Assembly (NCBI GenBank): GCA_964016885.1
Contig: OZ024748.1
Span: 57,846,001-57,910,000 of the forward strand
Reading direction: 5' to 3'
Length of the DNA stretch: 64,000 nt
Source: Eledone cirrhosa
Lineage: Eukaryota
Below are positions 3,199 through 50,413 of the stretch, in pieces; the first letter of the stretch is position 1, and every line of letters begins with the position of its first letter. The position numbers were made by a program, and so were the translations under genes. The notes beneath the pieces were generated by a model that saw only the letters and a program-made list of their open reading frames with translations, did no database searches and had not been told where the DNA came from.

Positions 3199-3429
3199 AA
3201 TGTATATGTGTGAATGTATGTATGTGAGTGTGTGGATATATATATATATATATATATATATTATTTTTTTTTTTTATTTAGTTTTTTTTTCTTCTCCTCG
3301 TGCAATCGGCCATACTCCATAACGAGGGGGCAGCCATCATGTATTTGTGTATATATATATATATGTATACACGAACCAACATACACATAAATAAATATAT
3401 ATATATATATATGTGTGTGTATACATTTG

Positions 3430-8260
<4,831 letters not shown>

Positions 8261-8267
<7 letters not shown>

Positions 8268-11200
8268 AATATAGACATAGAATATTCGAAAATATTCTGT
8301 ATGTTTATAATAAACATTTTGAAGACCTAATCGGTATAGAATAGAATACGTCACGTATTACAATTAGATTCTCGATAAAAGCAAGGGAAGTAATCTACGC
8401 GTTTCATTCTTGTTAGAAATCATCAGGACTACATATCCAGTGCTTTTATCGAGAATGACACAGCTAGAGACTTATAGAATACTTAGCTGTGTACAGGAAC
8501 TGGTTTGAAAGAGCGGTTGCCGGTCCGGCAGAAATTAGAAATTGGAATAAATGCTCTGAAATAGCGATATATATGTGAATATAGACATAGAATATTCGAA
8601 AATATTCTGTATGTTTATAATAAACATTTTGAAGACCTAATCGCTATAGAATAGAATACGTCACGTATTACAATTAGATTCTCGATAAAAGCAAGGGAAG
8701 TAATCTACGCGTTTCATTCTTGTTAGAAATCATCAGGACTACATATCCAGTGCTTTTATCGAGAATGACACAGCTAGAGACTTATAGAATACTTAGCTGT
8801 GTACAGGAACTGGTTTGAAAGAGCGGTTGCCGGTCCGGCAGAAATTAGAAATTGGAATAAATGCTCTGAAATAGCGATATATATGTGAATATAGACATAG
8901 AATATTCGAAAATATTCTGTATGTTTATAATAAACATTTTGAAGACCTAATCGCTATAGAATAGAATACGTCACGTATTACAATTAGATTCTCGATAAAA
9001 GCAAGGGAAGTAATCTACGCGTTTCATTCTTGTTAGAAATCATCAGGACTACATATCCAGTGCTTTTATCGAGAATGACACAGCTAGAGACTTATAGAAT
9101 ACTTAGCTGTGTACAGGAACTGGTTTGAAAGAGCGGTTGCCGGTCCGGCAGAAATTAGAAATTGGAATAAATGCTCTGAAATAGCGATATATATGTGAAT
9201 ATAGACATAGAATATTCGAAAATATTCTGTATGTTTATAATAAACATTTTGAAGACCTAATCGCTATAGAATAGAATACGTCACGTATTACAATTAGATT
9301 CTCGATAAAAGCAAGGGAAGTAATCTACGCGTTTCATTCTTGTTAGAAATCATCAGGACTACATATCCAGTGCTTTTATCGAGAATGACACAGCTAGAGA
9401 CTTATAGAATACTTAGCTGTGTACAGGAACTGGTTTGAAAGAGCGGTTGCCGGTCCGGCAGAAATTAGAAATTGGAATAAATGCTCTGAAATAGCGATAT
9501 ATATGTGAATATAGACATAGAATATTCGAAAATATTCTGTATGTTTATAATAAACATTTTGAAGACCTAATCGCTATAGAATAGAATACGTCACGTATTA
9601 CAATTAGATTCTCGATAAAAGCAAGGGAAGTAATCTACGCGTTTCATTCTTGTTAGAAATCATCAGGACTACATATCCAGTGCTTTTATCGAGAATGACA
9701 CAGCTAGAGACTTATAGAATACTTAGCTGTGTACAGGAACTGGTTTGAAAGAGCGGTTGCCGGTCCGGCAGAAATTAGAAATTGGAATAAATGCTCTGAA
9801 ATAGCGATGTATATGTGAATATAGACATAGAATATTCGAAAATATTCTGTATGTTTATAATAAACATTTTGAAGACCTAATCGCTATAGAATAGAATACG
9901 TCACGTATTACAATTAGATTCTCGATAAAAGCAAGGGAAGTAATCTACGCGTTTCATTCTTGTTAGAAATCATCAGGACTACATATCCAGTGCTTTTATC
10001 GAGAATGACACAGCTAGAGACTTATAGAATACTTAGCTGTGTACAGGAACTGGTTTGAAAGAGCGGTTGCCGGTCCGGCAGAAATTAGAAATTGGAATAA
10101 ATGCTCTGAAATAGCGATATATATGTGAATATAGACATAGAATATTCGAAAATATTCTGTATGTTTATAATAAACATTTTGAAGACCTAATCGCTATAGA
10201 ATAGAATACGTCACGTATTACAATTAGATTCTCGATAAAAGCAAGGGAAGTAATCTACGCGTTTAATTCTTGTTAGAAATCATCAGGACTACATATCCAG
10301 TGCTTTTATCGAGAATGACACAGCTAGAGACTTATAGAATACTTAGCTGTGTACAGGAACTGGTTTGAAAGAGCGGTTGCCGGTCCGGCAGAAATTAGAA
10401 ATTGGAATAAATGCTCTGAAATAGCGATATATATGTGAATATAGACATAGAATATTCGAAAATATTCTGTATGTTTATAATAAACATTTTGAAGACCTAA
10501 TCGCTATAGAATAGAATACGTCACGTATTACAATTAGATTCTCGATAAAAGCAAGGGAAGTAATCTACGCGTTTCATTCTTGTTAGAAATCATCAGGACT
10601 ACATATCCAGTGCTTTTATCGAGAATGACACAGCTAGAGACTTATAGAATACTTAGCTGTGTACAGGAACTGGTTTGAAAGAGCGGTTGCCGGTCCGGCA
10701 GAAATTAGAAATTGGAATAAATGCTCTGAAATAGCGAAATATATGTGAATATAGACATAGAATATTCGAAAATATTCTGTATGTTTATAATAAACATTTT
10801 GAAGACCTAATCGCTATAGAATAGAATACGTCACGTATTACAATTAGATTCTCGATAAAAGCAAGGGAAGTAATCTACGCGTTTCATTCTTGTTAGAAAT
10901 CATCAGGACTACATATCCAGTGCTTTTATCGAGAATGACACAGCTAGAGACTTATAGAATACTTAGCTGTGTACAGGAACTGGTTTGAAAGAGCGGTTGC
11001 CGGTCCGGCAGAAATTAGAAATTGGAATAAATGCTCTGAAATAGCGATATATATGTGAATATAGACATAGAATATTCGAAAATATTCTGTATGTTTATAA
11101 TAAACATTTTGAAGACCTAATCGCTATAGAATAGAATACGTCACGTATTACAATTAGATTCTCGATAAAAGCAAGGGAAGTAATCTACGCGTTTCATTCT

Positions 11201-12250
11201 TGTTAGAAATCATCAGGACTACATATCCAGTGCTTTTATCGAGAATGACACAGCTAGAGACTTATAGAATACTTAGCTGTGTACAGGAACTGGTTTGAAA
11301 GAGCGGTTGCCGGTCCGGCAGAAATTAGAAATTGGAATAAATGCTCTGAAATAGCGATATATATGTGAATATAGACATAGAATATTCGAAAATATTCTGT
11401 ATGTTTATAATAAACATTTTGAAGACCTAATCGCTATAGAATAGAATACGTCACGTATTACAATTAGATTCTCGATAAAAGCAAGGGAAGTAATCTACGC
11501 GTTTCATTCTTGTTAGAAATCATCAGGACTACATATCCAGTGCTTTTATCGAGAATGACACAGCTAGAGACTTATAGAATACTTAGCTGTGTACAGGAAC
11601 TGGTTTGAAAGAGCGGTTGCCGGTCCGGCAGAAATTAGAAATTGGAATAAATGCTCTGAAATAGCGATATATATGTGAATATAGACATAGAATATTCGAA
11701 AATATTCTGTATGTTTATAATAAACATTTTGAAGACCTAATCGCTATAGAATAGAATACGTCACGTATTACAATTAGATTCTCGATAAAAGCAAGGGAAG
11801 TAATCTACGCGTTTCATTCTTGTTAGAAATCATCAGGACTACATATCCAGTGCTTTTATCGAGAATGACACAGCTAGAGACTTATAGAATACTTAGCTGT
11901 GTACAGGAACTGGTTTGAAAGAGCGGTTGCCGGTCCGGCAGAAATTAGAAATTGGAATAAATGCTCTGAAATAGCGATATATATGTGAATATAGACATAG
12001 AATATTCGAAAATATTCTGTATGTTTATAATAAACATTTTGAAGACCTAATCGCTATAGAATAGAATACGTCACGTATTACAATTAGATTCTCGATAAAA
12101 GCAAGGGAAGTAATCTACGCGTTTCATTCTTGTTAGAAATCATCAGGACTACATATCCAGTGCTTTTATCGAGAATGACACAGCTAGAGACTTATAGAAT
12201 ACTTAGCTGTGTACAGGAACTGGTTTGAAAGAGCGGTTGCCGGTCCGGCA
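8261..12250 (-). mobile_element. Left arm of a 310-bp HHR tandem array (retrozyme-like), ~12.9 copies, ribozyme sense on the minus strand
   Basis: ATATGTGAATATAGACATAG starts at 8261, 8571, 8881, 9191, 9501, 9811, 10121, 10431, 10741, 11051, 11361, 11671 and 11981 (period 310). I saw only isolated substitutions (8334, 9809, 10265, 10738). There is one HHR per unit. Confidence 0.92.
8368..8456 (-). ncRNA. Type I minimal hammerhead ribozyme (unit 1; repeated every 310 bp, 13 copies on the minus strand)
   Basis: Minus strand reads GUAGUC-CUGAUGA-U UUCU AACA AGAA U-GAAAC-GC-GUA^-GAUUAC. Helix I is GUAGUC/GAUUAC and helix II is UUCU/AGAA. Helix III is the palindrome ACGCGU. Helix I is extended by a perfect 16-bp inverted repeat, ATTCTCGATAAAAGCA (8368-8383) / TGCTTTTATCGAGAAT (8441-8456). 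Confidence 0.88.
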
Positions 12251-13446
12251 CCAGTTCCTGTACACAGCTAAGTATTCTATAAGTTTCTAGCTGTGTCATT
12301 CTCGATAAAGCACTGGATATGTAGTCCTGATGATTTCTAACAAGAATGAAACGCGTAGATTACTTCCCTTGCTTTTATCGAGAATCTAATTGTAATACGT
12401 GACGTATTCTATTCTATAGCGATTAGGTCTTCAAAATGTTTATTATAAACATACAGAATATTTTCGAATATTCTATGTCTATATTCACATATATATCGCT
12501 ATTTCAGAGCATTTATTCCAATTTCTAATTTCTGCCGGACCGGCAACCGCTCTTTCAAACCAGTTCCTGTACACAGCTAAGTATTCTATAAGTCTCTAGC
12601 TGTGTCATTCTCGATAAAAGCACTGGATATGTAGTCCTGATGATTTCTAACAAGAATGAAACGCGTAGATTACTTCCCTTGCTTTTATCGAGAATCTAAT
12701 TGTAATACGTGACGTATTCTATTCTATAGCGATTAGGTCTTCAAAATGTTTATTATAAACATACAGAATATTTTCGAATATTCTATGTCTATATTCACAT
12801 ATATATCGCTATTTCAGAGCATTTATTCCAATTTCTAATTTCTGCCGGACCGGCAACCGCTCTTTCAAACCAGTTCCTGTACACAGCTAAGTATTCTATA
12901 AGTCTCTAGCTGTGTCATTCTCGATAAAAGCACTGGATATGTAGTCCTGATGATTTCTAACAAGAATGAAACGCGTAGATTACTTCCCTTGCTTTTATCG
13001 AGAATCTAATTGTAATACGTGACGTATTCTATTCTATAGCGATTAGGTCTTCAAAATGTTTATTATAAACATACAGAATATTTTCGAATATTCTATGTCT
13101 ATATTCACATATATATCGCTATTTCAGAGCATTTATTCCAATTTCTAATTTCTGCCGGACCGGCAACCGCTCTTTCAAACCAGTTCCTGTACACAGCTAA
13201 GTATTCTATAAGTCTCTAGCTGTGTCATTCTCGATAAAAGCACTGGATATGTAGTCCTGATGATTTCTAACAAGAATGAAACGCGTAGATTACTTCCCTT
13301 GCTTTTATCGAGAATCTAATTGTAATACGTGACGTATTCTATTCTATAGCGATTAGGTCTTCAAAATGTTTATTATAAACATACAGAATATTTTCGAATA
13401 TTCTATGTCTATATTCACATATATATCGCTATTTCAGAGCATTTAT

Positions 13447-13452
<6 letters not shown>
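12250..13452 (+). mobile_element. Right, inverted arm of the 310-bp HHR array, ~3.9 copies
   Basis: From 12250 the sequence is the reverse complement of the unit. ATATTCACAT recurs at 12481, 12791, 13101 and 13411. The arm ends at ATTTATTCCAAT, which runs into (TA)n. Confidence 0.92.
12321..12363 (+). ncRNA. Type I minimal hammerhead ribozyme (also at 12631, 12941 and 13251)
   Basis: GTAGTC CTGATGA TTTCTAACAAGAAT GAAAC GC GTA GATTAC is read directly on the + strand. Predicted cleavage is after 12357. Confidence 0.88.
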
Positions 13453-13506
<54 letters not shown>

Positions 13507-13534
13507 GTATATATATATATATATATATATATAC

Positions 13535-13588
<54 letters not shown>

Positions 13589-13597
13589 GTATATATA

Positions 13598-13684
<87 letters not shown>

Positions 13685-13693
13685 GTATATATA

Positions 13694-13766
<73 letters not shown>

Positions 13767-13775
13767 GTATATATA

Positions 13776-13858
<83 letters not shown>

Positions 13859-13875
13859 GTATATATATATTTATT

Positions 13876-13913
<38 letters not shown>

Positions 13914-13915
13914 CG

Positions 13916-14008
<93 letters not shown>

Positions 14009-14009
14009 G

Positions 14010-14046
<37 letters not shown>

Positions 14047-14047
14047 G

Positions 14048-14084
<37 letters not shown>

Positions 14085-14097
14085 GTATATATATATT

Positions 14098-14178
<81 letters not shown>

Positions 14179-14187
14179 GTATATATA

Positions 14188-14226
<39 letters not shown>

Positions 14227-14235
14227 GTATATATA

Positions 14236-14274
<39 letters not shown>

Positions 14275-14283
14275 GTATATATA

Positions 14284-14322
<39 letters not shown>

Positions 14323-14347
14323 GTATATATATATATACGTATATATA

Positions 14348-14386
<39 letters not shown>

Positions 14387-14439
14387 GTATATATATATTT
14401 ATATATATATATATATATATATATACGTATATATATATT

Positions 14440-14514
<75 letters not shown>

Positions 14515-14523
14515 GTATATATA

Positions 14524-14560
<37 letters not shown>

Positions 14561-14569
14561 GTATATATA

Positions 14570-14608
<39 letters not shown>

Positions 14609-14617
14609 GTATATATA

Positions 14618-14649
<32 letters not shown>

Positions 14650-14659
14650 CGTATATATA

Positions 14660-14698
<39 letters not shown>

Positions 14699-14749
14699 GT
14701 ATATATATATTTATATATATATATATATATACATATATACGTATATATA

Positions 14750-14822
<73 letters not shown>

Positions 14823-14948
14823 GTATATATATATTTATATATATATATACGTATATATATATATATATATACGTATATATATATTTATATATATATATAC
14901 GTATATATATATATATATATATATATACGTATATATATATATATATAC

Positions 14949-15004
<56 letters not shown>

Positions 15005-15024
15005 GTATATATATATATATATAC

Positions 15025-15082
<58 letters not shown>

Positions 15083-15095
15083 GTATATATATATA
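13453..15095. repeat. (TA)n microsatellite interrupted by CG and TTTA
   Basis: Direct reading. It has the same CGTA...TATTTATTTA sub-motif, in the same orientation, as 8080-8260. Confidence 0.97.
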
Positions 15096-16854
15096 AGTAT
15101 ATATGTGCAAATCACACACACATCGATTCCAGAATTACACCTATCTCTATACACACTTACCATGCATTAAATACTCCCATAATTTGCGGTTTCGTCTGTT
15201 TCCACACCACAGCACATGTCTGTCGCCTCCTATCTCTGTAACGTTATATCCAGGCAGCTGTATAATATAACACACACCAAGATTTTGTAAACTGCATATT
15301 AAAATATCAAATAAATTAGAATAATTTATAACCTAATTCATTAAATAATTTATGCCATAAGAAATTCACTCAATACATGATTTGAGGTGTGATCGTTTTT
15401 TTTTTTTAATGCGTCTAAACACATTTTAAACACAATCTTATACATAGAAATGCATAAAATTCAAATAGTAATATTTTTATTGCACGGTTACTCTAGTATT
15501 ATAAGTGTGTAAGCATATATGTGTGATTGAGTTTTACATACATACACATACATGCACACACGCACATATACATACACACATAAACTCATGCATCCATCCA
15601 TACATACATATGTGTGTATATGTGTTTCACATGGTATGAAATAGATATATTTGATGTGAATGTTATTGGTTTGTATTGATCGATAGGAATCCAATATAAT
15701 CTTGGTAATTACAGTATTGACAACAGATAAAAATAAAATAACAAACAAACAAGCAAACAGAAAAAAAACAATTCATTGGTCACAATCGGATCGTGAGGAT
15801 TTGAATGTGCTGTCACGTTTGAAGATCTTCACTTGTATCAGTCTTACGTAGTTATTATCATGACTTATGTGCATTGAGAACAGTATACGAGATTATTTCA
15901 AATCCAAGGTGTAATTCAAAAGATATGTGAATTGAACATAGTTTCATCATGAATCTATTTTACCATGATAATAGAATTGACCTACATTTTAATATGTATT
16001 TTCATCTTCTGCAATCCAAGATTCAGAAATATTAATTCTCTAGTCTATTGTTATAACTGCCTGCCATGAAATTCTTTGTCTTAAATTGGTATTACACACA
16101 CATTTGTTACGTTCAAGTGTTTATTATATTCTTATATTATATAATAGTAAACGTCATTTCATTAGCTATAATTCTAGCTCTTACAGAGACACCCGTGAAA
16201 GCAAGCCTCTTAGTGTTTAAGTTATTTTATTCAACACAGTAAATATACTAATTTCTGGTCTCGGTGGTGCGTTGTAACGTTAATTTTTTTCGTGATTCTG
16301 GAGATCATTATCTCGCAAAAATGAGTTATACCTGTAATCCATTGGCCCTTTAATTTGGCCATTACATTTATTTAACCCAAATTTGCCCTGTACCTGAATC
16401 AGAAACCAATTATTTTACCAATAAATGTAAATATATTTATATATATATTAGTACAAATATTTTGTATCTGTTTATGTATTTACGATTTTATTTGTATGTG
16501 GAAACATTGGTTTGGGAGCTAGCTTTTCTCGTGCAAACTAGCTTTTCTCGTGACACTGAGTCCACGTAGTTTGCAAAAATGAGTTAAAATCTAATTCATA
16601 ATATTTTCAATTTTTCCATTGTTTTTCACATAAAGATATAAGTAAAATACATTATATAACTTCAGAAGCATTACATGCAAGAAACAAATAAATTTAGACG
16701 GTAAAAACAAGCATTTCAAAATAATGTTCAGCATAGACACGATCCACCCTTACAATTAATCATTCCACCAAACATATATGTATATATACATATAAAGTTT
16801 TAGTAAAATAACAGGAGACCGGACTTATGTTCCATTAAACAGTTATTGTTGCAA

Positions 16855-16911
<57 letters not shown>

Positions 16912-17092
16912 ACAGACGTACAGTAGTATGTATATATATATACATACATGCACATATATATATATATAAGTACGTATGGATTCACCGAACATTTATTATA
17001 ATGCTCGGTGTGTTTGTAAACAAACATCCCGAATTAAGCCGTACAGTGTCTAGCAACCATCGTTGCTCATTTGTTCAACACTGACAAAGAAA

Positions 17093-17134
17093 CGCTGTAC
17101 TAGTTTCAAACTTATTGCGCTATCGTCAGCAACG
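17093..17134 (-). ncRNA. Type I minimal hammerhead ribozyme
   Basis: Minus strand: CGUUG-CUGACGA-UAGCGCAAUAAGUUU-GAAAC-UA-GUA^-CAGCG. Confidence 0.72.
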
Positions 17135-17428
17135 TATACCTTCCTGCCAGATGGTGTGAACGTCTGAAAGTATATATCGAGTGAGTTAATCGGCCGGGGT
17201 ACCGAAAACGATAAACGGAAAAAATGAAACGAAATTCCATTTCTCACTCTTAGTACGGCTGTTACTTAAATATAAGTGTGTATACGTACATACATATATG
17301 TATACAGACGTACGAAATGCAAATTATGCTGCTCAGCTGTACGATATGCAAATTAGGCTGTTCAGCCGTTAATATGCACAAGGAAAGTAAATACTTTCAG
17401 ACGTTCAACCATCTGGCAGGAAGGTATA

Positions 17429-17469
17429 CGTTGCTGACGATAGCTAATAAGCTTGAAACTAGTACAGCG
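17429..17469 (+). ncRNA. Type I minimal hammerhead ribozyme
   Basis: CGTTG-CTGACGA-T AGC TAATAA GCT T-GAAAC-TA-GTA^-CAGCG. Helix I is CGUUG/CAGCG, extended by GGAA/UUCC. Helix III is the palindrome ACUAGU. Confidence 0.8.
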
Positions 17470-18896
17470 TTCCTTTGTCAGTGTTGAACAAATGAGCAAC
17501 GATGGTTGCTAGACACTGTTTTAGGGATTCAAACTCACACATAGATATACATGCTCAGCTTTACATATATAGATAATATTTATGTTTAATCAAGAGCTAC
17601 GAAATTTAGATAAATTACATAATATTCATTCATTATCTATTCAACATAATCCAACTTTTTTTACTAACGGGATAAGAAATTATAAGATGGGCGTTGTCCG
17701 GAACGCCTCCCTTTATCATATTATAGATATATCTACAACATTTTGTTGTTAATCGTAATATTTGTTTCGAGATAATCTTTAATAAGGCTATAGAACGAAG
17801 AAGACGTTTCAATATTTTTATGTGTTCTACCGACCACCAAGAATTTGATACCTTTTAACATTTCAACGTTATTTAGGCATATCCAACATTGACACTATCA
17901 TCAATAGTAATTTTCTTTATATATAAGAATACCGAAAGGGCTATAATAATTGGTGATATGATTGAACATACTTCCACATACTTTTGGAAATTTATATACT
18001 GAACATCAGTTAGTATATAGGAAACATTATAGATGGTTGAGCAGATTGTATTCTGACATGTTATATATTCAGAATCTAAACAAACCTACCTGACTATATA
18101 AAGGCACTTCAAATTATTGACAGCATTAGCAGTTGGTCTTATGTGTAACAATTCACAATCTACATTTATATAAATATATAAAATATACCACATTTATAAA
18201 TGATTCCTAAATATGTCACGTTGCATCGCGTTACATAGAATAGCAACATGTTCGTTATATCTCATAACCTTTCTTCATTATGTTATACATGATCATTCTG
18301 ACATTCCTTCCGTTTGTACAAACATAGTTTCTTTCCTTTGAATTCATTTTACATCACGTTATGGTTCTGTCATACACAATCTTGATTATGAATCACGATG
18401 CAATACAAGATAGTAATTGAAAACTTGGCAGCCTGGACTGGTTGTGAAAGTTGTGTGACGTAAGTATATATTTCCGATGTTATAATCTCTATCCTGTCCC
18501 AAACCTCCACTGTTTTCATTATCGATATATATTCCACCCTTCTTGTGTCAGTTCTATATGTAGTTAGACAAAAGTGTGTTATGGTTCACTGCCAAACATT
18601 GTTGATATACCATGTTCTGAATTTAACTGTTTGGCTAGTCATAAAATGTCCTTAAATCTATGATCCACAACGCAATGCCTGCAATAAAATGTTCTTAGCT
18701 CACCATGTCACATGGCCTCAATCTTAGATTGTCTTTAACAGAATGAGAAATGAGTATAATATTTTACTAATTGTAGCACCCATTATGATATATTTTTATG
18801 CCAGCTCATTATTTATTCAATTCCTTGCAATTTCGTTTTATAAGATAATGAAGATGTGCTATATATTTACAGATGTTCAGTAATCAAATACATATA

Positions 18897-19758: not shown

Positions 19759-20134
19759 AGCCTTTATGATCTGAGTTCAAATCCCGCCGAGGTTAACTTT
19801 GCCTTTCATCCATACGGGGTCGGTAAAATAAAGTACCAGTAATGTACTGGATAATTGCTGGCCTTGTGCCAAAAGTAGAAACAATTATTATAATCTGAGT
19901 TCAAATCCCGCCGAGGTTAACTTTGCCTTCATCCTTACGGGTCGATAAAATAAAGTACCAGTAATACACTGGGTAATTGCTGGCCTTGTGCCTAACGTAG
20001 AAACAATTATTATAATCTGAATTCAAATCCCGCCGAGGTTAACTTTGCTTTTCATCCTTACGGGGTCGATAAAATAAAGTACCAGTAATACACTGGGTAA
20101 CGTGCTGGCCTTGTGCCAAAAATAGAAACAATTA
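19759..20134 (+). mobile_element. Three tandem 5'-truncated copies (~122-bp period) of the MetaSINE-type SINE
   Basis: B box (GAGTTCAAATCCC), central GCCTTTCATCC.TACGGGGTCGATAAAATAAAGTACCAG and tail GGCCTTGTGCC...AGAAACAATTA are repeated from about 19770, 19891 and 20013. Confidence 0.85.
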
Positions 20135-21525
20135 CTATAATTAGCTTGGTTAGGACACTACTTTTAAATTTTGCAATGTTTAATTCAACGAATATTTATC
20201 AACATTTTAATAGTTTATTTTTTCTTCTGTGTTTTGACAAGATTACTGACATACCTGTCAGGCTTCGTCGCTTTGTATATAATATACTCCGTAATATAAT
20301 TTTACCAGGGAAGGTTTAATAGCTATATGTAAAATACTAATTTCACAAATTCACTTCCTTGCTTTCAATATTCATAAACTATCATTCTAAAGCCGAATAC
20401 TACCAGAAATTTGTGAATAATATATCGTGGAATAATAGATGAGCAAGTAGATATTTCATGTCTGAATTGGAAGCCAGAAAAATATTGAAGGTGAATGACA
20501 ATTTGTGTTTTATATATATATATCACTTCTGCAGGACTAAAAATGTCCATAGGTATGTAGATAGACACACATGCCCACAACTACACACGTCCTACAGCAC
20601 ACGTAGACACACGCACATACACGTACGCACACTGACTCCATTAAGGCACACCCCTTGTTTTACACATTGGAAGAAATCTACAACAGCTTCAATATAATAG
20701 GAAATATTAGGATGTTAGAATTTCTTGAAGTTTAGAATAATAATATAACTATATTTTTAATCTCGATCTGTCAAATGGCTGTCAAATTACTGCAATACTA
20801 TTATGTCATTTAATAAAAAAAAATACTACCATTTGATTGACAACTTAATTCGATTTCACAGAAAAGCTTAGAAATTATTGATAACTTAATAAATTAAAAA
20901 TACACTACTTAGTACGGATGTACCGCTGAAATATACAGACAAATAAGATTTCTTCTATAAATCTGCTTTGTCAGGCAATTAGCAGATTAGAGCAAATTTT
21001 CGCTTTTATTTGGAATGTGAAAACACGTATATTTCTATCTCATAACTACGGCGTAGAATCAATTTATAAAAAAAACAACATGTTCCTTTAAATCGTCTAG
21101 AAACTTTGTTTTATCAATTTAATGTTGCTCATATTAAAAATATAATACGTAATATTAACTGTGAAGATAAAAGCATGTCCCTGCATTAGAGGAAGTTGCT
21201 TCATACCGAATATTATTTCCGCTCTGCTCCGCTGCGTAGCATCTGCGGTAAATATTGTTTACTGCAACGATGCATTCACCAATGCCCCTTGAGTTGTATT
21301 TGGTAGATAGACATTCAGAATCCATTTTTGTGTGTGTGTATATATATATATATAATAGTTGTGTGTGTGGGTGTGTGTGTGTGTGAGAGAGAGAATATGC
21401 ATGTCTATCTTTAAGTGTTTATGCCGGAGTTTATATCCGATAACCTTATTATGCGACAAAAGAGAGATCGAACCATATCTTCCACACCGCAAAAAGTGTT
21501 TAATGGAGTCAATGGGATAGAATAA

Positions 21526-21715
21526 ATAATTGTTTCTATATTTGGCACAAGGCCAGCAATTACACAGTGCATTACTTGTACTTTATTTTATCGACCCCAT
21601 AAGGATGAAAGGTAAAGTTAACTTCGTGGGATTTGAATTTAGGATGTCAAGGGCCATAACTCTATGCGTCGAAGCATAGTGTCAGACCCTCTACCGATAC
21701 TGCCAATCCACCTCC
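21526..21715 (-). mobile_element. tRNA-derived SINE (MetaSINE-type), full length
   Basis: Minus strand has A box TGGCAGTATCGG, a B-box-like ATTCAAATCCC, the Meta-like domain CCTTTCATCCTTATGGGGTCGATAAAAT and the 3' tail AGAAACAATTAT. Confidence 0.85.
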
Positions 21716-22260
21716 GCTTGCTGCCAATCCACTGTCAGTCCACCTACGAGGACTTACTCAAAGGACTGAATGCAGGACGAAATAAATATGAGAATAGAAG
21801 AAAACAGACAAACTATATTTGTAGAATTCTAAAAAGTTAGAGCTACTAAATACGAAGAGAATTAGATGTCATGCAATGGGTTTATCTAAGAGTGTATTGG
21901 ATAACATTGTCGCAAAGAAAAGATAATCCTTTCTAAACTGATTTCATTACTATATATTATTCAGAAAATATCTAGAACATGTTCAACTGTCCACTCAGTA
22001 ATTCGTTCAATCTGCAAGTAATACTAATCTGTATAATTTACTTACTTCTATAATAGCGAGATTCAATTTAGTAGACGTATCTCCTTAAGCCATATATTTT
22101 AAAGAAAGCGTGTTTCTATGTAAGTATTTCCTATTATCCTCCTTGAAAACTGGACAGACACTGTTGGATTGATAATGTATCCTATTTTCTGTAGTAGACT
22201 ACTTAAATTGTGCTTCTGAGAAATGATTTCACGAATTCTTATCTTCTAGAAAGAAATAAT

Positions 22261-22444
22261 TGTTTCTACTTTAGGCACAAGGCCAGCAATTCCCCAGTGC
22301 ATTAATGTTACTTCATTTGATCGACCCCGTAAGGTTGAAAGGCAAAGTCAACCTCTGCGGGATTTGAACTCAGATCGTAAAGGGACGTAACTATGGTGGA
22401 AAGCATGGCATCCGACCTTCTACCGATACTGCCAATCCACCGCC
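22261..22444 (-). mobile_element. tRNA-derived SINE (MetaSINE-type) with 18-bp target-site duplication
   Basis: Same family. The direct repeat CTTCTAGAAAGAAATAAT lies at 22243-22260 and 22445-22462. Confidence 0.9.
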
Positions 22445-22559
22445 CTTCTAGAAAGAAATAATGGAACTCATACACAATATCTCCCATACACTCAAACACT
22501 CGCAAAGACACGAACAGTTAGCCTCATAGACAACTATCAACCAACAAGCACACATACGC

Positions 22560-22608
<49 letters not shown>

Positions 22609-22615
<7 letters not shown>

Positions 22616-23308
22616 ACGTAAAATAAGAAAATAAAAAAAAAAATTAACTTACTTAAATTTTCACTCCAACTAATTAGTTTCTGCAATGGGATAGACGGTT
22701 ACGTAATCTAACTGTCGAGAATTCATTGCGTCATCAGGGAGTCTATTCTCAGCTAAGTCTCCAGGCAATACGCGGACACCGGGGACTCATATAAAAATAA
22801 TAATAATTCGGTAGATGGAACAGCTAGTGGGGTCTGAATTCCATGCACTGAAATCCTCGCTGCCTCTAGTCAAATGGCCGATTCTAAAGAATCAATCACG
22901 TGACACAGAGGCTAGTCAGTAGGAATGGGATGGTAAGATGACAGACGCCAACTAACACCCCCAAAAAAAATTTAGAAGTGGTTTTGGCAGGTTTGCTCGA
23001 CAAATCAGTGATTTGGAGATAAATATAGATGATTTAATATATCTACTAACATAAGCGCACAGATGTACGCTAATGCCAGCAAATACACAGGTTATGTCAT
23101 AGTACCTAGGTGGTTCAATGCAGAGGATGCAGAACAATAATATAAAGACGTAAAATAAGAAAATAAAAAAAAAAAATGTTATTAAAAATTTATATTATTG
23201 TTCTGCATCCTCCTGCATTGAACCACCTAGGTACTATGACATAACCTGTGTATTTGCTGGCATTAGCGTACATCTGTGCGCTTATGTTAGTAGATATATT
23301 AAATTATC

Positions 23309-23313
<5 letters not shown>
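22609..23313 (-). mobile_element. HHR-bearing element between TA tracts: ~532-bp monomer, partial second copy and 124-bp inverted arm
   Basis: TAAAGACGTAAAATAAGAAAATA(n) is a direct repeat at 22611 and 23143. Segment 23023-23146 is the near-perfect reverse complement of 23189-23313. An HHR lies at 22663-22742. Confidence 0.8.
22663..22742 (-). ncRNA. Type I hammerhead ribozyme with long helix II
   Basis: Minus strand: ACUCC-CUGAUGA-c GCAAUG...GACAGUUA gauuacg UAACCGUC...CAUUGC a-GAAAC-UAAUUA-GUU^-GGAGU. Helix I is ACUCC/GGAGU. Helix III is the 10-nt palindrome ACUAAUUAGU. Confidence 0.75.
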
Positions 23314-28310
<4,997 letters not shown>

Positions 28311-28496
28311 TCATAAAACATGTCTATAGAATCACAAGATAAAATATATACTATTTCCTCTCCCCAAATATAGACGTCGTTTTATTATATATAGCTCTTG
28401 ATTGTTTAATTTATTAATTTTTCATTGAGCCACAAAGTGACCGGTTGCAAAACACGTATATGTATGTGTATGTTTATATATATATATGTAAACTTT

Positions 28497-28530
<34 letters not shown>

Positions 28531-28760
28531 TAGGTATATATGTGTATTTATATGTATATATATATATAGGTATATATGTATTTATATATATGTATATATA
28601 TATATATAGGTATATATGTATTTATATATATGTATATATATATATATAGGTATATATGTGTATTTATATGTATATATATATATAGGTATATATGTATTTA
28701 TATATATATATATATATATATATGTGTATTTATATGTATATATATATATAGGTATATATG

Positions 28761-28809
<49 letters not shown>

Positions 28810-28818
28810 ATATATATA

Positions 28819-28936
28819 GGAACGAGTAGGACCCCGACGGCTGAGCTCAAAACCGTTTCGACGGCTAATTCTGGAGTCTATTGAGTACTTTGGTGCGTTA
28901 TGGTCCACCTGGTTCCTTACCACATTTTCCTTCGTT
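28819..28936. mobile_element. 118-bp mini-derivative of the 48.3-50.4 kb element (end A fused to inverted end B) in (TA)n
   Basis: 28819-28877 matches the segment starting at 48349 (GGAACGAGTAGGACCCC...CTGGAGT). 28879-28936 is the reverse complement of the segment starting at 48268 (AACGAAGGAAA...GTACTCAATA). Confidence 0.8.
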
Positions 28937-28992
28937 ATATATATAGCTACATGTATTCACACACACAAACACATACATATATACATATATAT

Positions 28993-29072
28993 AACGAAGG
29001 AAGTGTTGTAAGAAAACCCAGGTGGCCGATAACGCACCAGAGTACTCAGCTGCCGGTTCCTGACTCTGTTCC
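28993..29072. mobile_element. Diverged 80-bp mini-derivative of the same family, inverted relative to 28819-28936
   Basis: AACGAAGGAAGTGTTGTAAG...ATAACGCACCAGAGTACTC (end B) is joined to CTCAGCTGCCGGTTCCTGACTCTGTTCC-TATA (decayed reverse complement of end A). Confidence 0.65.
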
Positions 29073-30014
29073 TATATATATATATATGAGTGTTTCTCAT
29101 AAAGGAATTTCGATCTAAAGGAATATCAATATCATAAAGGAATATCGATAATTATTTCTTCAAAGTTACCTTTTTTAATTTAACTCCGTTTAAATGATGT
29201 ATCTAGTTAAATTCTAGGGTTTAGGATGAAACAAATCGGATAAAATTTGATAGTTGAGTATGACTATATTAGAAAGGGACGTGCCCTGAATCTTTCTAGT
29301 ATTTAAATATATTGTTTAAGGAACCAGCATCAATTATGCTTCATGAGTGGCCCAGTCGCTGGAAAGTTTGCTGCGGATGAAAAAAGAACAATGTGTCTTA
29401 CCCCCTCTTTCACTCCTTCTCACTGTCTAACAGGCTCTGGATGATGACAACGTTGGTGGGACCCGTAGACGGCTACGCTGCACTAGTGTTAAAGTTTTAA
29501 ATGCGGAGGTCAGAGAAACTGTCACGACAACATACCTAGTGTTCTATTAACAAGTTGGTTCCGTATCACATATCCATCTGAATTTAGGGAAAAATGTAAC
29601 ATATCTGTGATTTATTCAATCATAGTACAAACACTCATTTTCATAATTCACACTAACGTTTTGATAATCCACATGGCTACGTTAATTCAATGTCCTCAAT
29701 TCATGTTTGTTTTATTTGGCATTCACGCGACTATTATTACAGTTGTATATCTTAGAAAAATAAAACACAGCTTTAAAGCAAATAGAACATTTATTATGAA
29801 AAGAGCAGTGCTCCGTGTATTAGAACGAGTCCCCAATATACAATACTTTCTTTTATCTTTCCGACTGACCGTAGGAGATGTAACATAGAGCACCGTGCCA
29901 ATAGAGTTATTTATGCACTCCGATTAACTTAGAAAACTAAAATTAACTAAGAAAACTTAGAAACTATAGACACTCATATACACATACGTACTGATATAGG
30001 CATACATATATGCA

Positions 30015-33076: not shown

Positions 33077-35905
33077 ATATATATGTAATATTTAATTTGT
33101 TTGGAGTCCAACAAACTTAAAAGTTATAACTGATATAGAGCACTCAACAGTTTACTGGAGTAAATATTCAATATATTAATAATTTGAAATTTTATTTATA
33201 AAACCATAATTAGTTTATTAAATACATTTCAAGGGCGACCAAGCCAATCTTGGTGCGCTTTCATCAGATAAAATACAAAATTTGTTTTATAAATAATGAC
33301 ATAACCATGGAAAACAAACTTGACGGTTGAAAATAATGCTCACTGTAATTGAAACCAAAATAAAATGTAATACATAAACTAGTTAGAGTAAATTAAAGAC
33401 ATAGTGAGGACTATATGGAACTCTAATGGGGATGAGATATCTCATGATTTAAGCTGCGGGAAATAACTTACTTCACATTGAAACTAAAGTCAGAATTTTT
33501 AGTAATATATCTGAGATGAATTGAGATTACTAGCGTGGGAAGACACGTATCTCGCTTGAGGTCTGTATATATTTCCCTATTTTCTAGTTGACAAATCTAA
33601 TTCAAATATTACCTGACACATAATTGCATATATTATGGTAGTGTCAGGCAACAAATCTTTCGAAAACTAATATGTAACAAAAACATTCTTTGGAAAATTC
33701 TTACTGGGTCTCATAGTTAATTTAAAAAGAAAATCCTCGTTCGTATCAACACCTATTTCCAGGTGGATGGATTACATTAATAGAAATGTAGAAATGGAGA
33801 TTCTCATTATAGAGACAGTTCACTTTTGGAAACCTATAGCAGTTGCGAAAAAGTAAGTAAATAAGCTCTTATGCAATCCATATACTTACATATTTTTCCA
33901 TCAGAGGTTAGTAGTAGAAAACAGGCAACACATATAGATATATTTAATTTCAATTTTAATAACATTGGAAATGAATCCTACATTGGATATAATAATAATT
34001 CTATACAAAATACACTTGAAAATGTTGAATAGAAAATACCGTAATGCTAGACGGAAAATGAAATTATGTATTTTTTATACCTCCTAGATGTGCTTGAATT
34101 TAATTATTTCGGCATTGTTACTTAGGTATTGGTTTCTAAAGAACGGTGAATATGTCTCAGAGTATCTGGAAAAAAGGAGGATCGAGTCAACGTCAATTCG
34201 ATGTAATGGTAACTGAAAAAGAATATTTATTATAATATTTTACTCACTTGAAACATTGCACGAAATGTTATGTTAAAGGAGAATGATATAAGTACATACA
34301 CTCATGGGTGTGCGCTATATATATATATACGCAAACCCGCTCACACTCAAGCACTCACATACTCACATCATAATTGTTAATCGCATATGTGCTGACTATC
34401 GGATATGATGTCACATGAGAAGAAGAAGTAAGAATGGTTTGTGAAGGATCCTGAAATAACAAAACAGAAAAAGAAAACCCGAATTCATGAAATAAATGCT
34501 TCTTTTCTGTGTTAAATAAGCTTCTAAAGTTATAACATATTCTAACGTAGCTAAGTTACAGAAACAGCAATATCGTGGACAATTACTTGATAATTTATCC
34601 TTTAGTAATTACTCAATTACAACGAAAAGTTAAAAATCTATGGAGGAAAAAATATTTTGTTTAGAGTATACTTTTTATCGCAATAACGTCTTCAGGTGAT
34701 ATATAAAGTAGCACATATAATTCTACCTACGCTATTCCATAGCCTTCTAGCAATGTTATTCAACCGAATAGGATTTATCGCCGAATACTTCAAAACACAC
34801 AAAAAAGAAATGGTAGAATCGCAAATATTCTAGATTTCTCGATTAACAATAACATATGCTTCATAGATTCCAGAAGAAAATATTACACATGATGAACTAG
34901 GCGACCAATATATTTAGAGACGGGATTTATCAGTAGCACCGTCAATATATTCGCTCTATAGATATATCACCTGAAAAAATGGAAAGAAGGAAATTAATTA
35001 AAATAATCAATGAATTTCCTTTTTGAGTACAAAAAGGAAAACCATTTGAGGCAGTAAAGAAGTGAAGCGGCTTCATCTGTCTATATTCTTCTGACGTCAA
35101 TATTTTGAATGATCTTGGATATAACCGTCTGGAAAGATATTTCAAAATAATTTAACTAAATATTGCAAGATATACAGCAAATAAAATAGTATAGTTCTCC
35201 CTGAAATAAATGGTTAATTCTTCCGGAAATATGTTAGGGATATTTTCTTTATTTTTGTCTGGTAGGTTTCTATTTAAATTCGAACCAAAGAAATATATTC
35301 CTCTGTGATGTTGCTGCGTACTATTTTCATATACTAAACCACAAATATGGCAACAAATGTAGCCGTGGGACAAGACGTTTAACAACATATTTTTCTTTTG
35401 ATTCTCAAATAACGTTAATATAATTTTAGTTCTTCTACTCATTCATGAAATATAAGCTTATTAGCCGTAACTTTTACTTCGAGGAATTATGGTAGTAATG
35501 TTATATAGCCCTTTACAGATTTTCAATACAGTTGGTACAATTCCTTTTTTTTGTCATACTGAGATTATCATGTGTTGCTTTGTTTTTTTTTTTACGTGTC
35601 TTTCTTAGTAACATACTTGCTACGAATACGTGTATCTTTGCCGGTCACCTACCTAATACAGACATTCTCTATTAATCTCGCTAAATCAATTGCTCATATA
35701 TTACAAATTACTCTAACAGACAAAAGAAAAGTAAAACAAATTTTCGAAATACCAATACCATAATTCTTTATAATATTGGTGTACTTTGTTTCTCTTACTA
35801 CTAATAGAGAACAATTTCTCATTCATGCAGTTTAAGCACTGTCAGACATATCGCAACCAATAATTTACTGATACAAATCTATCACTCTAAGGGACTGATA
35901 TATAT

Positions 35906-36060
35906 TACCCAGTGAATTACTAGTACTTTATTTTATCGACCCCGTAAGGATGAAAGGCAAAGTTAACCACGATGGGATTCGATCTCAGAATGGCAAGAGT
36001 CGTAACACTATGCGTCAACGCATGACATACGACCCTCTACCGATACTGCCAATCCACCGC
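35906..36060 (-). mobile_element. tRNA-derived SINE (MetaSINE-type), 3' tail missing
   Basis: TTTTATCGACCCCGTAAGGATGAAAGGC...CCGATACTGCCAATCCACCGC. Confidence 0.85.
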
Positions 36061-37354
36061 AATTAAACTACTAATATATAATGACACAATAATATATTTA
36101 TATCCATTTTCTTTTGTTAGAAATTTTATTTACGTTAGATCACAGCATTCACGTATCGGACTAACTTCTATTACTATTTCCTCCTGTAATTATAGAATCA
36201 TCATATCATTCACTGTGGAAGTCAATTATCTATGTCGAACTGCAATATCCTGCATTCCTAACCGTCAGTTTAAGAGACGGTTAGATTGCGTTCATTTTCT
36301 TACGTTCCTGTACATAATATTCTCTTCGTCCTGCCAGCAACAGCTTAACATGATTCGACTCTTCACTATTGCAAAATAATGATGCGGTGTTTTTGGAAAG
36401 AGTCGCCTAGTATCTGTTTTAATGTCGTTGGCTAGGTCATTCATTTTTATTGTTAACGCTGCTTTAAATCTTCGCTCTTCTCCAAATTCAGCCTTTTCTG
36501 CCCTGTCATATAGAAGAATCTCGTGAAAATATTAATACCAAATATGTAATAATTAGACTGTTTACACTGAACTACCCGTGTTATCGATTCTTCTTCCTTC
36601 GCATATGTTTCCCTCGAATGCATGTGTTGTGTAACGGTGATATTACACTTTGCCCTCCTTGGTAAGTGCATTTTCTTATACACCAACACCAAGGTTAAAG
36701 TTTTGTAAATATCATTGGAGTGACAAAAGCTGTGTGCCTGTTGAATAGAGAGTACATATAATCCGAAGAGACAGTTTATCACGTCGAATCTCTACCACAA
36801 TTATATCATAACTACACCTATATGATATGTCAATGAAGATATATACTAACTACATATGTATGTTATTTAGTTCAGGGAACAATGTGAATACTTATTCCCG
36901 AAACCGACACCAAGTTATGTAATATTTTGTCTACAATGGTATATATGCAATAGGTACGCAATACTGATGCCATTCAATTCTACAGATATTCTGTTCAACC
37001 GTTTAATGATTACAAGAATCCAACGTTTTACGGTGAGACATTTTTAATACTAAATACTATAATCTTGAAATTCTGTATGAATCTGAACGACAATATGCTT
37101 CTTGTACACATATCTGCTGCTGAATTATATACATTAAGAACTATGTATATGGTAGCTGATTTTATAGTTAGATAACGACAGATTTGTACCTGTAGGTAAT
37201 CAAATCTAAATGTATTTCATAGCTAACTAAATTTAATACGGAATCAATGAGATATGTTTAGCTGCATACGAAATAGCGAATGGGACTTCCATCACTTTAA
37301 TTTATTATGTATTTACTTATGAAGTTTCCTCATATTATTTACGTGTGAATGGAA

Positions 37355-37550
37355 GGATGGTGGATTGGCAGTATCGGTAGAGCGTCAGGACTCCATGCTT
37401 TGCAGCATAGAGTTAAGGCCCTTTATGATTTGAGTTCAAATCCCGCCGAGGTTAAATTTGCCTCTCATCCTTACGGGGTCGATAAAATAAATTACCAGTA
37501 ATGCACTGGGATAATTACTGGCCTTGTGCTAAAAAGTAGAAACAATTATT
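37355..37550 (+). mobile_element. tRNA-derived SINE (MetaSINE-type), full length
   Basis: A box TGGCAGTATCGG, B box GAGTTCAAATCCC, Meta-like domain and tail AGAAACAATTATT. Confidence 0.88.
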
Positions 37551-39069
37551 TATTTGTGATTAAAAGGTTTGTGCGATAGAAGTATCTATGCCCATGGCTT
37601 TGCAAGGCCTTCTATAGCAGAGTGTTTAATTTGACTTGATATTGCTCTTCTATAACCTTAAGATGATAGTTATATGAACCACACAGAGAAGAAGGGAATT
37701 GCATTGGAACCATGTTCTTAGAAGGTAATTGGAATACTTTCAAACTGACAGAGGTCGTCCTTGGAGTAGAACATTCAGATGGGTATTTTTAAAATGATGA
37801 TAGAATATTATAAGACTTGGTCATTTCAGATTTGTAGCGATACAGTAGATATATGCAGCTGCAGTCACGTCTACGTATTACGATGTTAAATATCCCGCTA
37901 GATACATATACTTAACAATATGTACACTTCATTACAGTTCATATAATCATGTCTATTTCACACGCAATAACCCCTCACCGCAAACAAACACATCGACACA
38001 CACACAAATGTATATATTTGACTGATTATATATGTATATATGTACGTATATATATGTATATATGTGTATATTTGTATATATATATGTATACTACTTGTTG
38101 TTTCAATGAAATGATACCATTAGAATTTAATTAATGTTTGCCAAAATCCCCTTTGTAAACATATCTGTATCATTACTGAATTGGCACACCGTAAATTACA
38201 AATCTACTTGAAAGCATATCAAGTTTTAATTAGTTTTGTTGCTTACAAAGTATATGCTAGTGATACACTTTCCTCAAATGCTAGAAATATTTTGTAAATA
38301 CCAACAGTGTCGACAAATCAAAATGATTTCTGTGAAAGATGATACAGGTTGTTATATCGTTAAAATGATTTAGTTTGTTCGCCAGTTTAAAACAAACGAA
38401 AATGAAACTGAAACAATGGTAACCAAAAAGCAAACTCATATTTGAAATTGCATAAGAATATAAAATATGTGGTTGAAATATTTGTCCAATATTTGACTCT
38501 AGTTTGCGTAAATGACAACAGTAATGCCTCTGAAAAATCACGAAATTTATAAGGTCGTTCAGATCCTATTTGGCGGAAGATGCAAACGTTTTTACTAATC
38601 TCACGGAGCGAGCTGACATTTACTAAAACGTCAGAATGGTGTTGCAGAATAAAAGAATATAATTTATTGTTGAATTTTTATTCTGCTGTCGATTCAAACC
38701 GAGTTTCCGATGCCATGAAGGTCAACGTTTCCACTCCTCATTTCGATATCGATAAACAAGTATACGTCCTGTATTACGAAGATTCTTCCTCTATATATTT
38801 TTCTCACTGCGTTTCCTCTCTACCTTACCCAAACGAAGCGGCTGATTGCTGGAGAGGGATTTATATCCGCCGAGTGTTTAGTGCCCAACGCAGGCCTTAT
38901 ATCACATAGCATACATAAGACTCCCATTAGGAAATTCGGTTCTAATCATACATCTATTTAAGACAATGAATGTGTGATACAGCTGATGTTTGTGTGAATG
39001 ATTCGACTGCGCTACCACAAACTGTTCTTTTATTTCTCTAGGTGAAATATAGTTACAAACGCACCTCCA

Positions 39070-39141
<72 letters not shown>

Positions 39142-39198
39142 CAGGGTGAAAGAGACGATTATGAGGAAGAAAAATATATATTTTTTTCTTTTTTTTTT

Positions 39199-39232
<34 letters not shown>

Positions 39233-39235
<3 letters not shown>

Positions 39236-39754
39236 AAGTTTGAAGACTAAAATACAAAGAGGGCTCGATAAGAATAACTATCAAATATATAAGAACCGTA
39301 GAGCAAATATTCACTAAAATAACAGATTAAAGTGTAAGCAAAGAATCGCTGCTTTCACACTTAACGGGATCTTCTGAAACTAAAAAATTCAATCTGTGAA
39401 CGCAGAAGTAAATATTTCAAAAAACGTTGCAGCCGAAGGAAGACAGAAAGACGATACTTTGGTTCGTGGTAACGTTCCCTGGCACAGAACGGATAAAGAC
39501 AAAGATAATACGTCATAATTTGGTGCGGTGAAAACAATTACACCGCAGCAAATTATGACGTATTATCTTTTCTTTATCCGTTCTTTGCCAGGGAACGTTG
39601 CCACGAACAAAAGTATCGTCTTCCTGTTCTCCTCCGGTTGCAACGTTTTTTGAAATATTTACTTCTGCGTTCCCAGATTGACATTTTTTGTTTCAGAAGA
39701 TCCCGTTAAGTGTGAAAGCAGCGATTTTTGCTTACACTTTAATCTGTTATTTTA
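39233..39754. mobile_element. Foldback element in (TA)n: ~215-bp inverted arms, 10-nt loop and ~80-bp extra left tail, with HHR-like relics near the arm tips
   Basis: 39315-39530 is the near reverse complement of 39541-39754, with loop AAAACAATTA. TA runs lie on both sides. Confidence 0.85.
39674..39746 (+). ncRNA. Hammerhead-like relic (mirror copy at 39323-39396, minus strand)
   Basis: CAGATTGA...GTTT-CAGAAGA-TCCCGTTAAGTGT-GAA-AGCA gcgatttt TGCT-T-ACAC.TTAATCTG. Outer helix CAGAUUGA/UUAAUCUG and helix III AGCA/UGCU fit. U4 is replaced by A in both arms and helix II is weak. Confidence 0.4.
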
Positions 39755-40017
39755 ATATATATATATATATATATATATACAAATAAGCGTGAAACTAATA
39801 GGATTTCGTATAATTGTGTGTTTATATATATGTGCGTGCGTGTATGTATATATAAATATATATATATATATAAGAATATTTCGCTCTACGTGGCTGATAA
39901 ATGTACTCTGAGTGTTTCCAATATTAATAACAACATTCGATTCGTTTGCAATTATGCAAACAAGTCTCAATTTTATAGACATGTCATTAGAATGAACCCT
40001 TCATTCTTGCTCTTGTG

Positions 40018-40097
40018 TTGGCATGTCAACAGAACTGCAGATACTAATGTTTCTGGGTATCCCCCTTCATCAGTACAACTCACTGTTCACCTGCCAA
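40018..40097 (-). ncRNA. Solo type I hammerhead ribozyme motif in an insert between TA-rich tracts (~39871-40217)
   Basis: Minus strand: UUGGCA..AACAG..AGUUGUA-CUGAUGA-ag GGG gaua CCC a-GAAAC-auua-GUA^-uc-UGCAGUU CUGUU..UGCCAA. All core nucleotides are present and helix I has three stacked segments. There are 2 extra nt after the cleavage site. Confidence 0.6.
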
Positions 40098-40842: not shown

Positions 40843-41051
40843 AATAGTTTCTCTTTTAGACACAAGACCAACAACTATTTGTGGTGGTGGGGGTGCAATT
40901 CTATGACATAGGCCTCAGTACATTATTAGTGTTTTATTTTATCGACTCCTTAAAGATGAAAGGCAAAACTAACTTCGGCGGGATTTGAACTCAGGACGTA
41001 AAGGAACCACACAGTATGTTGCCAGACACTTTATCTATACTGCTAATCCAC
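40843..41051 (-). mobile_element. Older MetaSINE-type SINE subfamily
   Basis: TTTTATCGACTCCTTAAAGATGAAAGGC, GGGATTTGAACTCAG, TACTGCTAATCCAC. Longer 3' region than the young copies. Confidence 0.75.
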
Positions 41052-44954: not shown

Positions 44955-45041
44955 GGAACGAGTAGGACCCCGACGGCTGAGCTCAAGCCATTTCGACGGG
45001 TAATTCTGGACGTCCAGAATTAGCCGTCGAAAAGGCTTGGG
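44955..45041. mobile_element. Hairpin mini-derivative of end A of the 48.3-50.4 kb family
   Basis: TA run, then GGAACGAGTAGGACCCCGACGGCTGAGCTC..., folding back on itself around TCTGGAC|GTCCAGA (centre 45011/45012). Confidence 0.75.

Positions 45042-50372: not shown

Positions 50373-50413
<41 letters not shown>

Follow-up and report, generated by a model that had tools for sequence, protein, structure and literature searches.

Penelope-like elements are known for insertions in which partial tandems stand next to an inverted, 5'-truncated copy and a tail of 30 to 40 bp (PMC8557442). The passages of that study on which we rely ascribe the (TA)n bias of Naiad and Hydra elements to the endonuclease linker, report canonical hammerheads in Hydra and not in Naiad, and name the origin of both the tandem/inverted structure and the microsatellite preference as open questions; among the families in its supplement are Naiad and Hydra elements of octopus that prefer (TA)n. 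A type I hammerhead with a long helix II and a short helix I has been described in PMC4209133, which also suggests circular RNA for copies of more than one unit. Furthermore, tandem repeats with type I hammerheads are presented as non-autonomous partners of Penelope-like elements (PMC7229834; bioRxiv 10.64898/2026.07.22.740005), and the preprint argues that retrozymes are non-autonomous Penelope-like derivatives. A purified Penelope-like protein cuts AT-rich DNA and extends both strands, starting at two internal sites on an uncleaved RNA that show no homology to the target (PMC11167929). For L1, twin and dual priming have been defined in PMC2837659.

We analyzed a 705-bp insertion in the genome of Eledone cirrhosa (GCA_964016885.1, contig OZ024748.1, within positions 57,846,001 to 57,910,000), and found that it is most probably a non-autonomous Penelope-type retrozyme insertion. 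The whole stretch of 64,000 nt, here called the window, is AT-rich and dense in microsatellites and interspersed repeats (Table 1). The earlier note on this DNA contained neither the hammerhead nor a family name; the family is already known.

Table 1. Features of the 705-bp insertion and of related or neighboring elements (positions in the window)
Feature	Position	Strand	Remarks
Left (TA)n tract, presumed target	22560-22612	.	TRF; last 5 nt (22608-22612) also fit the element's ATATA
Long arm, 1.07 units of the 532-nt monomer	22608-23176	-	RNA sense is minus, RNA 3' end at left
One 532-nt unit	22613-23144	-	no coding potential found; strand-specific folding
Type I hammerhead motif	22663-22742	-	descriptor and shuffle control
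Second copy of the terminal 36 nt	23140-23176	-	ends in A-run, 23 nt before next ribozyme cut
Filler of 12 nt at head-to-head junction	23177-23188	.	no template found
Inverted arm, copy of 23023-23146	23189-23313	+	RNA sense is plus, 3' end at right
Right (TA)n tract	23309-23331	.	first 5 nt common with the element's ATATA at 23023-23027
Array of 310-nt units	8257-13452	minus then plus	12.9 copies of minus-strand hammerheads head-to-head with 3.9 plus-strand copies, inside (TA)n
Third hammerhead element	16968-17519 (left end approximate)	minus left, plus right	arms 17043-17176 and 17388-17519, 95.5% identical
Foldback family in (TA)n	48259-50375; short copies 28816-28945, 28981-29087, 44952-45039	.	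no hammerhead by descriptor
Foldback between (TA)n tracts	39138-39755	.	identity of the arms about 92%, the left one longer, with 16 nt between them; the descriptor found no hammerhead
SINE-like loci	19761-20141, 21521-21715, 22250-22461, 35904-36081, 37359-37555, 40848-41007, 47380-47586, 50741-50958, 55075-55269

The left terminus of the element (22608-22643) recurs at 23140-23175 with 36 of 36 nucleotides identical and a spacing of 532 nt (BLAST within the window, E 5e-13), which bears out the redundancy of about 35 bp seen previously; the A-run is 11 nt long in one copy and 12 nt in the other. Likewise, 23189-23313 aligned with 23023-23146 as its reverse complement, apart from one substitution and one inserted base, so that the right 124 bp are indeed an inverted copy, with a boundary that had been placed one base off. 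The longest match of the intervening filler to the 532-nt unit is 7 nt, which leaves it with no clear template. To the right of the element, the (TA)n tract passes into about 5.5 kb of degenerate TA/TG repeat including a 200-N gap. No second copy of an element with the 532-nt unit was found in the 64-kb window, and a distant blastn of the unit against a plasmid collection gave no match.

The longest stop-to-stop frame of the unit encodes 80 amino acids, and no informative open reading frame (ORF) was found in it. Scanning of five frames from the element yielded one sub-threshold match of 15 residues to a phage tail, which was judged noise, and no match to a Penelope-like reverse transcriptase (RT) or GIY-YIG domain was obtained among ten ORFs, including five from the element and four from the foldback at 48 to 50 kb. 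Since an autonomous Penelope-like element is recognized by an ORF with RT and GIY-YIG, the element does not qualify as one.

The minus strand of the unit carries a predicted hammerhead with a helix I of 5 bp, a CUGAUGA core starting from 22737, a long-looped helix II of 6 bp whose basal pair is a C-A mismatch, GAAA, and an 8-nt palindrome as helix III. The predicted cut lies after the U at 22668 in a GUU site. None of 5,000 dinucleotide shuffles of the unit gave a descriptor match on either strand. The fold constrained to the hammerhead reached -14.9 kcal/mol versus -17.4 kcal/mol for the free fold. This deficit of 2.5 kcal/mol for the active fold counts against the motif, as do the C-A mismatch, the GUU site, and the negative Rfam result. 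Rfam models detected no hammerhead in 22610-23030, probably due to the long loop of helix II; in the scan of the whole window, the 150 of 580 matches listed were miRNA-like hairpin or microsatellite noise, all below gathering scores. Loose pattern matches at 40042-40073 and 58171-58210 were rejected as hammerheads, as they failed the helix descriptor.

Circular folding of the unit gave a z score of -5.4 for the minus strand and -1.0 for the plus strand (25 shuffles each, with none of the 25 as good on the minus strand); a linear fold gave -5.3, and eight control stretches ranged from -2.9 to +2.9. Taken from the sequence, the hammerhead motif and the strand-specific folding support a minus-strand RNA intermediate for the element at 22608-23313. 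Since the long cDNA crosses the ribozyme cut site, the template would have comprised more than one unit and would have been uncut or religated at that site.

Across the 64 kb, the strict hammerhead descriptor gave 19 matches, all of them in three head-to-head elements (1 in the element described above, 16 in the 310-bp array, and 2 in the third element), and in all three the RNA 3' ends point outward to the flanks. The 310-bp array represents a textbook case of a retrozyme array and is of very recent origin, although its copy number is possibly affected by assembly. It consists of tandem repeats with at least two ribozymes, as is required of an active retrozyme, and its 17 near-identical units show six differences, none of which is common between units; in a single unit, the ribozyme core (near 10286) is mutated. 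Its Rfam match was Hammerhead_HH9 with an E value of 0.026, below the gathering score. The third element has the core CUGACGA and a right flank that is not (TA)n. Eighteen nucleotides of its spacer (about 17296-17313) recur at 16884-16901, which is perhaps an abortive start. No similarity beyond shuffle level was detected among the three hammerhead units, with a shuffle control for the two comparisons that involve the 532-nt unit.

Both ends of the 532-nt element overlap the flanking (TA)n by 5 nt (ATATA), confirming that they merge with it at internal AT tracts, and together they occupy two of the four alternating AT tracts of the unit. An overlap of at least 5 nt is given by 0.0235 of the start positions and phases in the unit, so the chance for both ends jointly is near 5e-4; the overlap at the right end was read off the raw alignment, in which the substitution adjoins that junction. 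For the 310-bp array, a beginning at an internal AT tract had also been claimed. This holds at the left end, which lies at an 8-nt AT tract (null 0.0145), but not at the right end, where the overlap is only 2 nt (null 0.25). The overlaps at the four assessable junctions of hammerhead elements are thus 5, 5, 8, and 2 nt.

The foldbacks without a hammerhead behave differently: all four of their (TA)n junctions that were scored have an overlap of 0 nt, and three share one exact start. Hence, (TA)n targeting without microhomology occurs in the window, although these neighbors may use other enzymes. The three junctions belong to the family with the 48-50 kb foldback, which has two fixed starts about 85 nt apart; the 780-bp arms of this foldback are 95.9% identical, and no Pfam match was found in the four frames tested. 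The short copy at 28816-28945 consists of two arms in opposite orientation, one from each fixed start. Because these arms do not overlap, the copy was not made by fold-back, and priming from both target ends can give such arms. The zero overlap of the foldback at 39 kb was scored at its right end. Across the foldbacks in the window, the arms differ by 0.2 to 8%.

The earlier note had further proposed that microhomology explains the targeting of (TA)n and that the element has no fixed termini. The former is not supported, given the four of four hammerhead-less junctions with 0 nt, the role attributed to the endonuclease linker (PMC8557442), and the homology-free start described in PMC11167929. 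Most likely, the endonuclease directs insertion to (TA)n and microhomology only fine-tunes the start. The latter lacks support as well, as the cDNA starts lie 55 to 177 nt 3' of the cut and the neighboring ribozyme-less family has two fixed starts, one of them without microhomology.

The starts are located 55 to 60 and 172 to 177 nt 3' of the ribozyme cut in the 532-nt unit. The corresponding distances are 131 to 139 and 163 to 165 nt for the 310-bp array and roughly 130 and 55 nt for the third hammerhead element. Four of these starts come from units of known length, and for them the chance of such clustering is 0.036, a weak and post hoc value. At its other end, the long arm of the 532-nt element stops 23 nt before it would reach another cut site, and a linear RNA with a 5' end generated by an upstream ribozyme therefore fits as well as a circle. 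Modulo 532, no more than 7 nt separate the inner end of the short arm from the priming site of the long arm; in the 310-bp array, it is the long arm that stops 11 nt ahead of the other start (modulo unit). The joint chance of both is 0.009, post hoc and with n = 2. A stop at the start of the other arm is a signature of twin priming, with two primers on one RNA. On the other hand, the arm ends are 30 nt apart on the unit in the 532-nt element and 25 nt apart in the 310-bp array (joint chance 0.019), and four of the six foldback spacers measured do not exceed 42 nt (about 42, 25, 16, and 2 nt versus 211 and 482 nt). Close arm ends and short spacers are a signature of fold-back, and one locus alone cannot separate the two.

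In our reading, the 705 bp are probably one insertion of a non-autonomous, hammerhead-bearing retroelement of the non-LTR retrozyme type that was copied in trans by a Penelope-like RT/GIY-YIG enzyme. The enzyme would bind minus-strand RNA longer than one unit and would cut both strands of the (TA)n tract. This RNA would measure 568 nt or more, and about 690 nt if a single molecule was used at both ends; it would be either a circle or linear, in the latter case with its downstream ribozyme left uncut. Each (TA)n 3' end would then prime cDNA internally, 55 to 60 and 172 to 177 nt 3' of the cut, with a 5-nt AU tract settling the exact start. The 3'-most cDNA (124 nt) would halt at the site of the other primer, and the other cDNA (568 nt) would read through the ribozyme site and come close to the 5' end of the RNA, before end joining with the 12-nt filler produces the head-to-head fusion. 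The homology-free start of the anole element in vitro (PMC11167929) speaks against the priming step, and further points against this reading are the single copy in the window, the lack of an RT or GIY-YIG match among the ten ORFs, and a unit longer than those quoted for animal retrozymes.

For the 124-nt inverted arm itself, we lean slightly toward twin or dual priming. The narrower version, in which both (TA)n ends anneal by 5-nt microhomology to one ribozyme RNA, possibly a circle, and the first cDNA halts at the second primer, is tentative and rather doubtful. In the open-access literature searched for Penelope together with twin priming or microhomology, no statement of this single-RNA model was found in the text available; subscription papers or supplements may have one. 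Whereas architecture, target, and the idea of a circle are already in print, microhomology at both starts and the stop at the other primer are possibly new, with n = 2 elements.

That (TA)n 3' ends prime internally from both sides of the break, as proposed before, agrees with the outward RNA 3' ends in three of three elements and with the microhomology, but the inverted arm is explained by fold-back, too. The 3' end of the long cDNA could have snapped back onto its own ATATAAA and copied 124 nt of itself, so that only the left end was target primed, while a 5-nt microhomology later served to link the arm to the (TA)n end on the right. The spacer of only 42 nt between the arms and the short spacers at four of six foldbacks argue for this, and the 30-nt distance of the arm ends (25 nt in the array) is what fold-back directly predicts; moreover, self-priming has been put forward for head-to-head Penelope repeats in PMC3846280. 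However, fold-back gives no reason why the right ends should lie 55 to 177 nt 3' of the cut like the left ends, weak as this clustering is (chance 0.036), and it cannot yield the non-overlapping arms at 28816-28945, which belong to a different family without a hammerhead. The variants of the 310-bp array cannot settle the question, because none of the six differences is common between units. Overall, we regard fold-back as a less probable source of the arm. The full model of the earlier note, a freely permuted circular RNA of 532 nt primed at any AU tract, with microhomology as the cause of microsatellite targeting, appears unlikely. A template of more than one unit with a cDNA that crosses the cut site stands, as does the position of both ends at two of the four AT tracts, and the 17 units with six unshared differences are as expected from rolling-circle copying of one molecule. 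Circles of animal retrozymes are documented (PMC7229834), and a circular template was suggested as early as 2014 (PMC4209133). Yet a circle is not required, since linear RNA leads to the same product if one ribozyme stays uncut, and in vitro the anole element works on unprocessed RNA (PMC11167929). The 2-nt overlap at the right end of the array, the four of four hammerhead-less junctions without overlap (three at one exact start), and the confinement of all six starts to a window 3' of the cut also speak against free permutation.

Slippage during or after insertion could have made the (TA)n flanks grow from the AT tracts of the element itself, in which case the overlap would be an effect and not a priming signal. 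Kilobases of degenerate TA repeat do adjoin the 532-nt element and the 310-bp array, but foldbacks with 0-nt overlap likewise lie in (TA)n, and insertion into (TA)n has been documented for several Penelope-like clades (PMC8557442), which makes this a very improbable account. Telomerase-like reiterative copying as the source of the long TA arrays was dropped on visual inspection, as the flanks lack repeats of the first templated bases. We give hardly any credence to a DNA transposon derivative (a MITE with a TA target) or an assembly fold-back artifact, despite the TA-rich flanks and the 200-N gap 1.1 kb away. Beyond ATATA, the two ends do not form an inverted repeat (local score 13), which sets the element apart from MITEs with their terminal inverted repeats. 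The arms differ at two sites and are separated by a filler, the foldbacks in the window differ by 0.2 to 8% between arms, and an artifact would not point the ribozymes outward in three of three elements.

Like the non-LTR retrozymes described in passages of PMC7229834 and bioRxiv 10.64898/2026.07.22.740005, the element has a unit that is non-coding, low in GC, and equipped with one type I hammerhead, a palindromic helix III, and highly self-paired RNA, and the mismatch at the base of helix II is shared with axolotl HHR_Amex2. In contrast, the unit size quoted for animal retrozymes is 150 to 450 bp versus 532 nt here, and an active non-LTR retrozyme has at least two ribozymes in tandem. With only 1.07 units and one ribozyme, the locus at 22608-23313 could not excise a monomer itself, and it is what the 2026 preprint (bioRxiv 10.64898/2026.07.22.740005) would call a "monomer" derivative. 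The words "inverted" and "microsatellite" do not occur in the main text of PMC7229834, and the portions of the retrozyme sources used here do not deal with head-to-head arms or (TA)n junctions.

With the Hydra and Neptune clades of Penelope-like elements, as portrayed in the relevant parts of PMC8557442 and PMC3846280, the element shares the partial tandem, the adjacent inverted 5'-truncated copy with offset ends, the (TA)n target, the absence of a discernible target duplication, and the type I hammerhead (PMC4209133). It differs from endonuclease-positive Penelope-like elements in having no ORF. The 36-nt redundancy is similar in size to the Penelope tail of 30 to 40 bp but sits between the 3' end and the inner junction and is not simply that tail. 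An exact 12-nt search found none of five motifs from the elements of the window in the part of the PMC8557442 supplement that was covered, and the Hydra-1_Obim ribozyme given there was rejected as a match, since it differs from the hammerheads of the window. The Poseidon element of the green anole (PMC11167929) resembles the locus in that both strands of AT-rich DNA are cut and extended, the start is internal and downstream of the ribozyme, and cleavage is not needed; it uses two fixed, homology-free starts, whereas both starts here show 5-nt homology. L1 twin and dual priming (PMC2837659), as defined there, also involve cDNAs from opposite target strands, an internal primer with microhomology, and end-joined inverted arms. 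Unlike L1, the locus shows no priming at a poly(A) tail, both primers are internal, the template exceeds one unit, and no target duplication is visible.

Several other repeats were observed in the window. Degenerate (TA)n arrays that are kilobases long (3387-8264, 13451-15104, and 23361-28818) adjoin the two youngest insertions; the last of them has an extreme G skew and contains the 200-N gap at 24424-24623. An abundant SINE-like family of about 200 bp occupies nine loci, one of which is a 122-bp tandem of three. ARAGORN predicted 0 tRNA genes in the window; decayed SINE heads escape this program. A 165-amino-acid frame at 42226-42723 has a weak zf-RVT match (E 0.0024) and no homologue at E 1e-10 in a protein search; it is probably a LINE 3' end. 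Short, decayed inverted repeats are located at 61561-61753 and 63508-63558.

The value of the locus lies in its testable geometry; the element itself is an ordinary new family. In short non-autonomous units, both priming and both stop sites are visible in one locus, and with several such insertions per 64 kb, a cheap, large-sample test becomes feasible that compares twin priming, dual priming, and fold-back as well as circular and linear templates. If true, twin priming on a single RNA would account for the long-unexplained tandem/inverted structure of Penelope-like insertions, and base pairing would determine the starts in some retrozyme families, in contrast to the initiation without homology observed in vitro.
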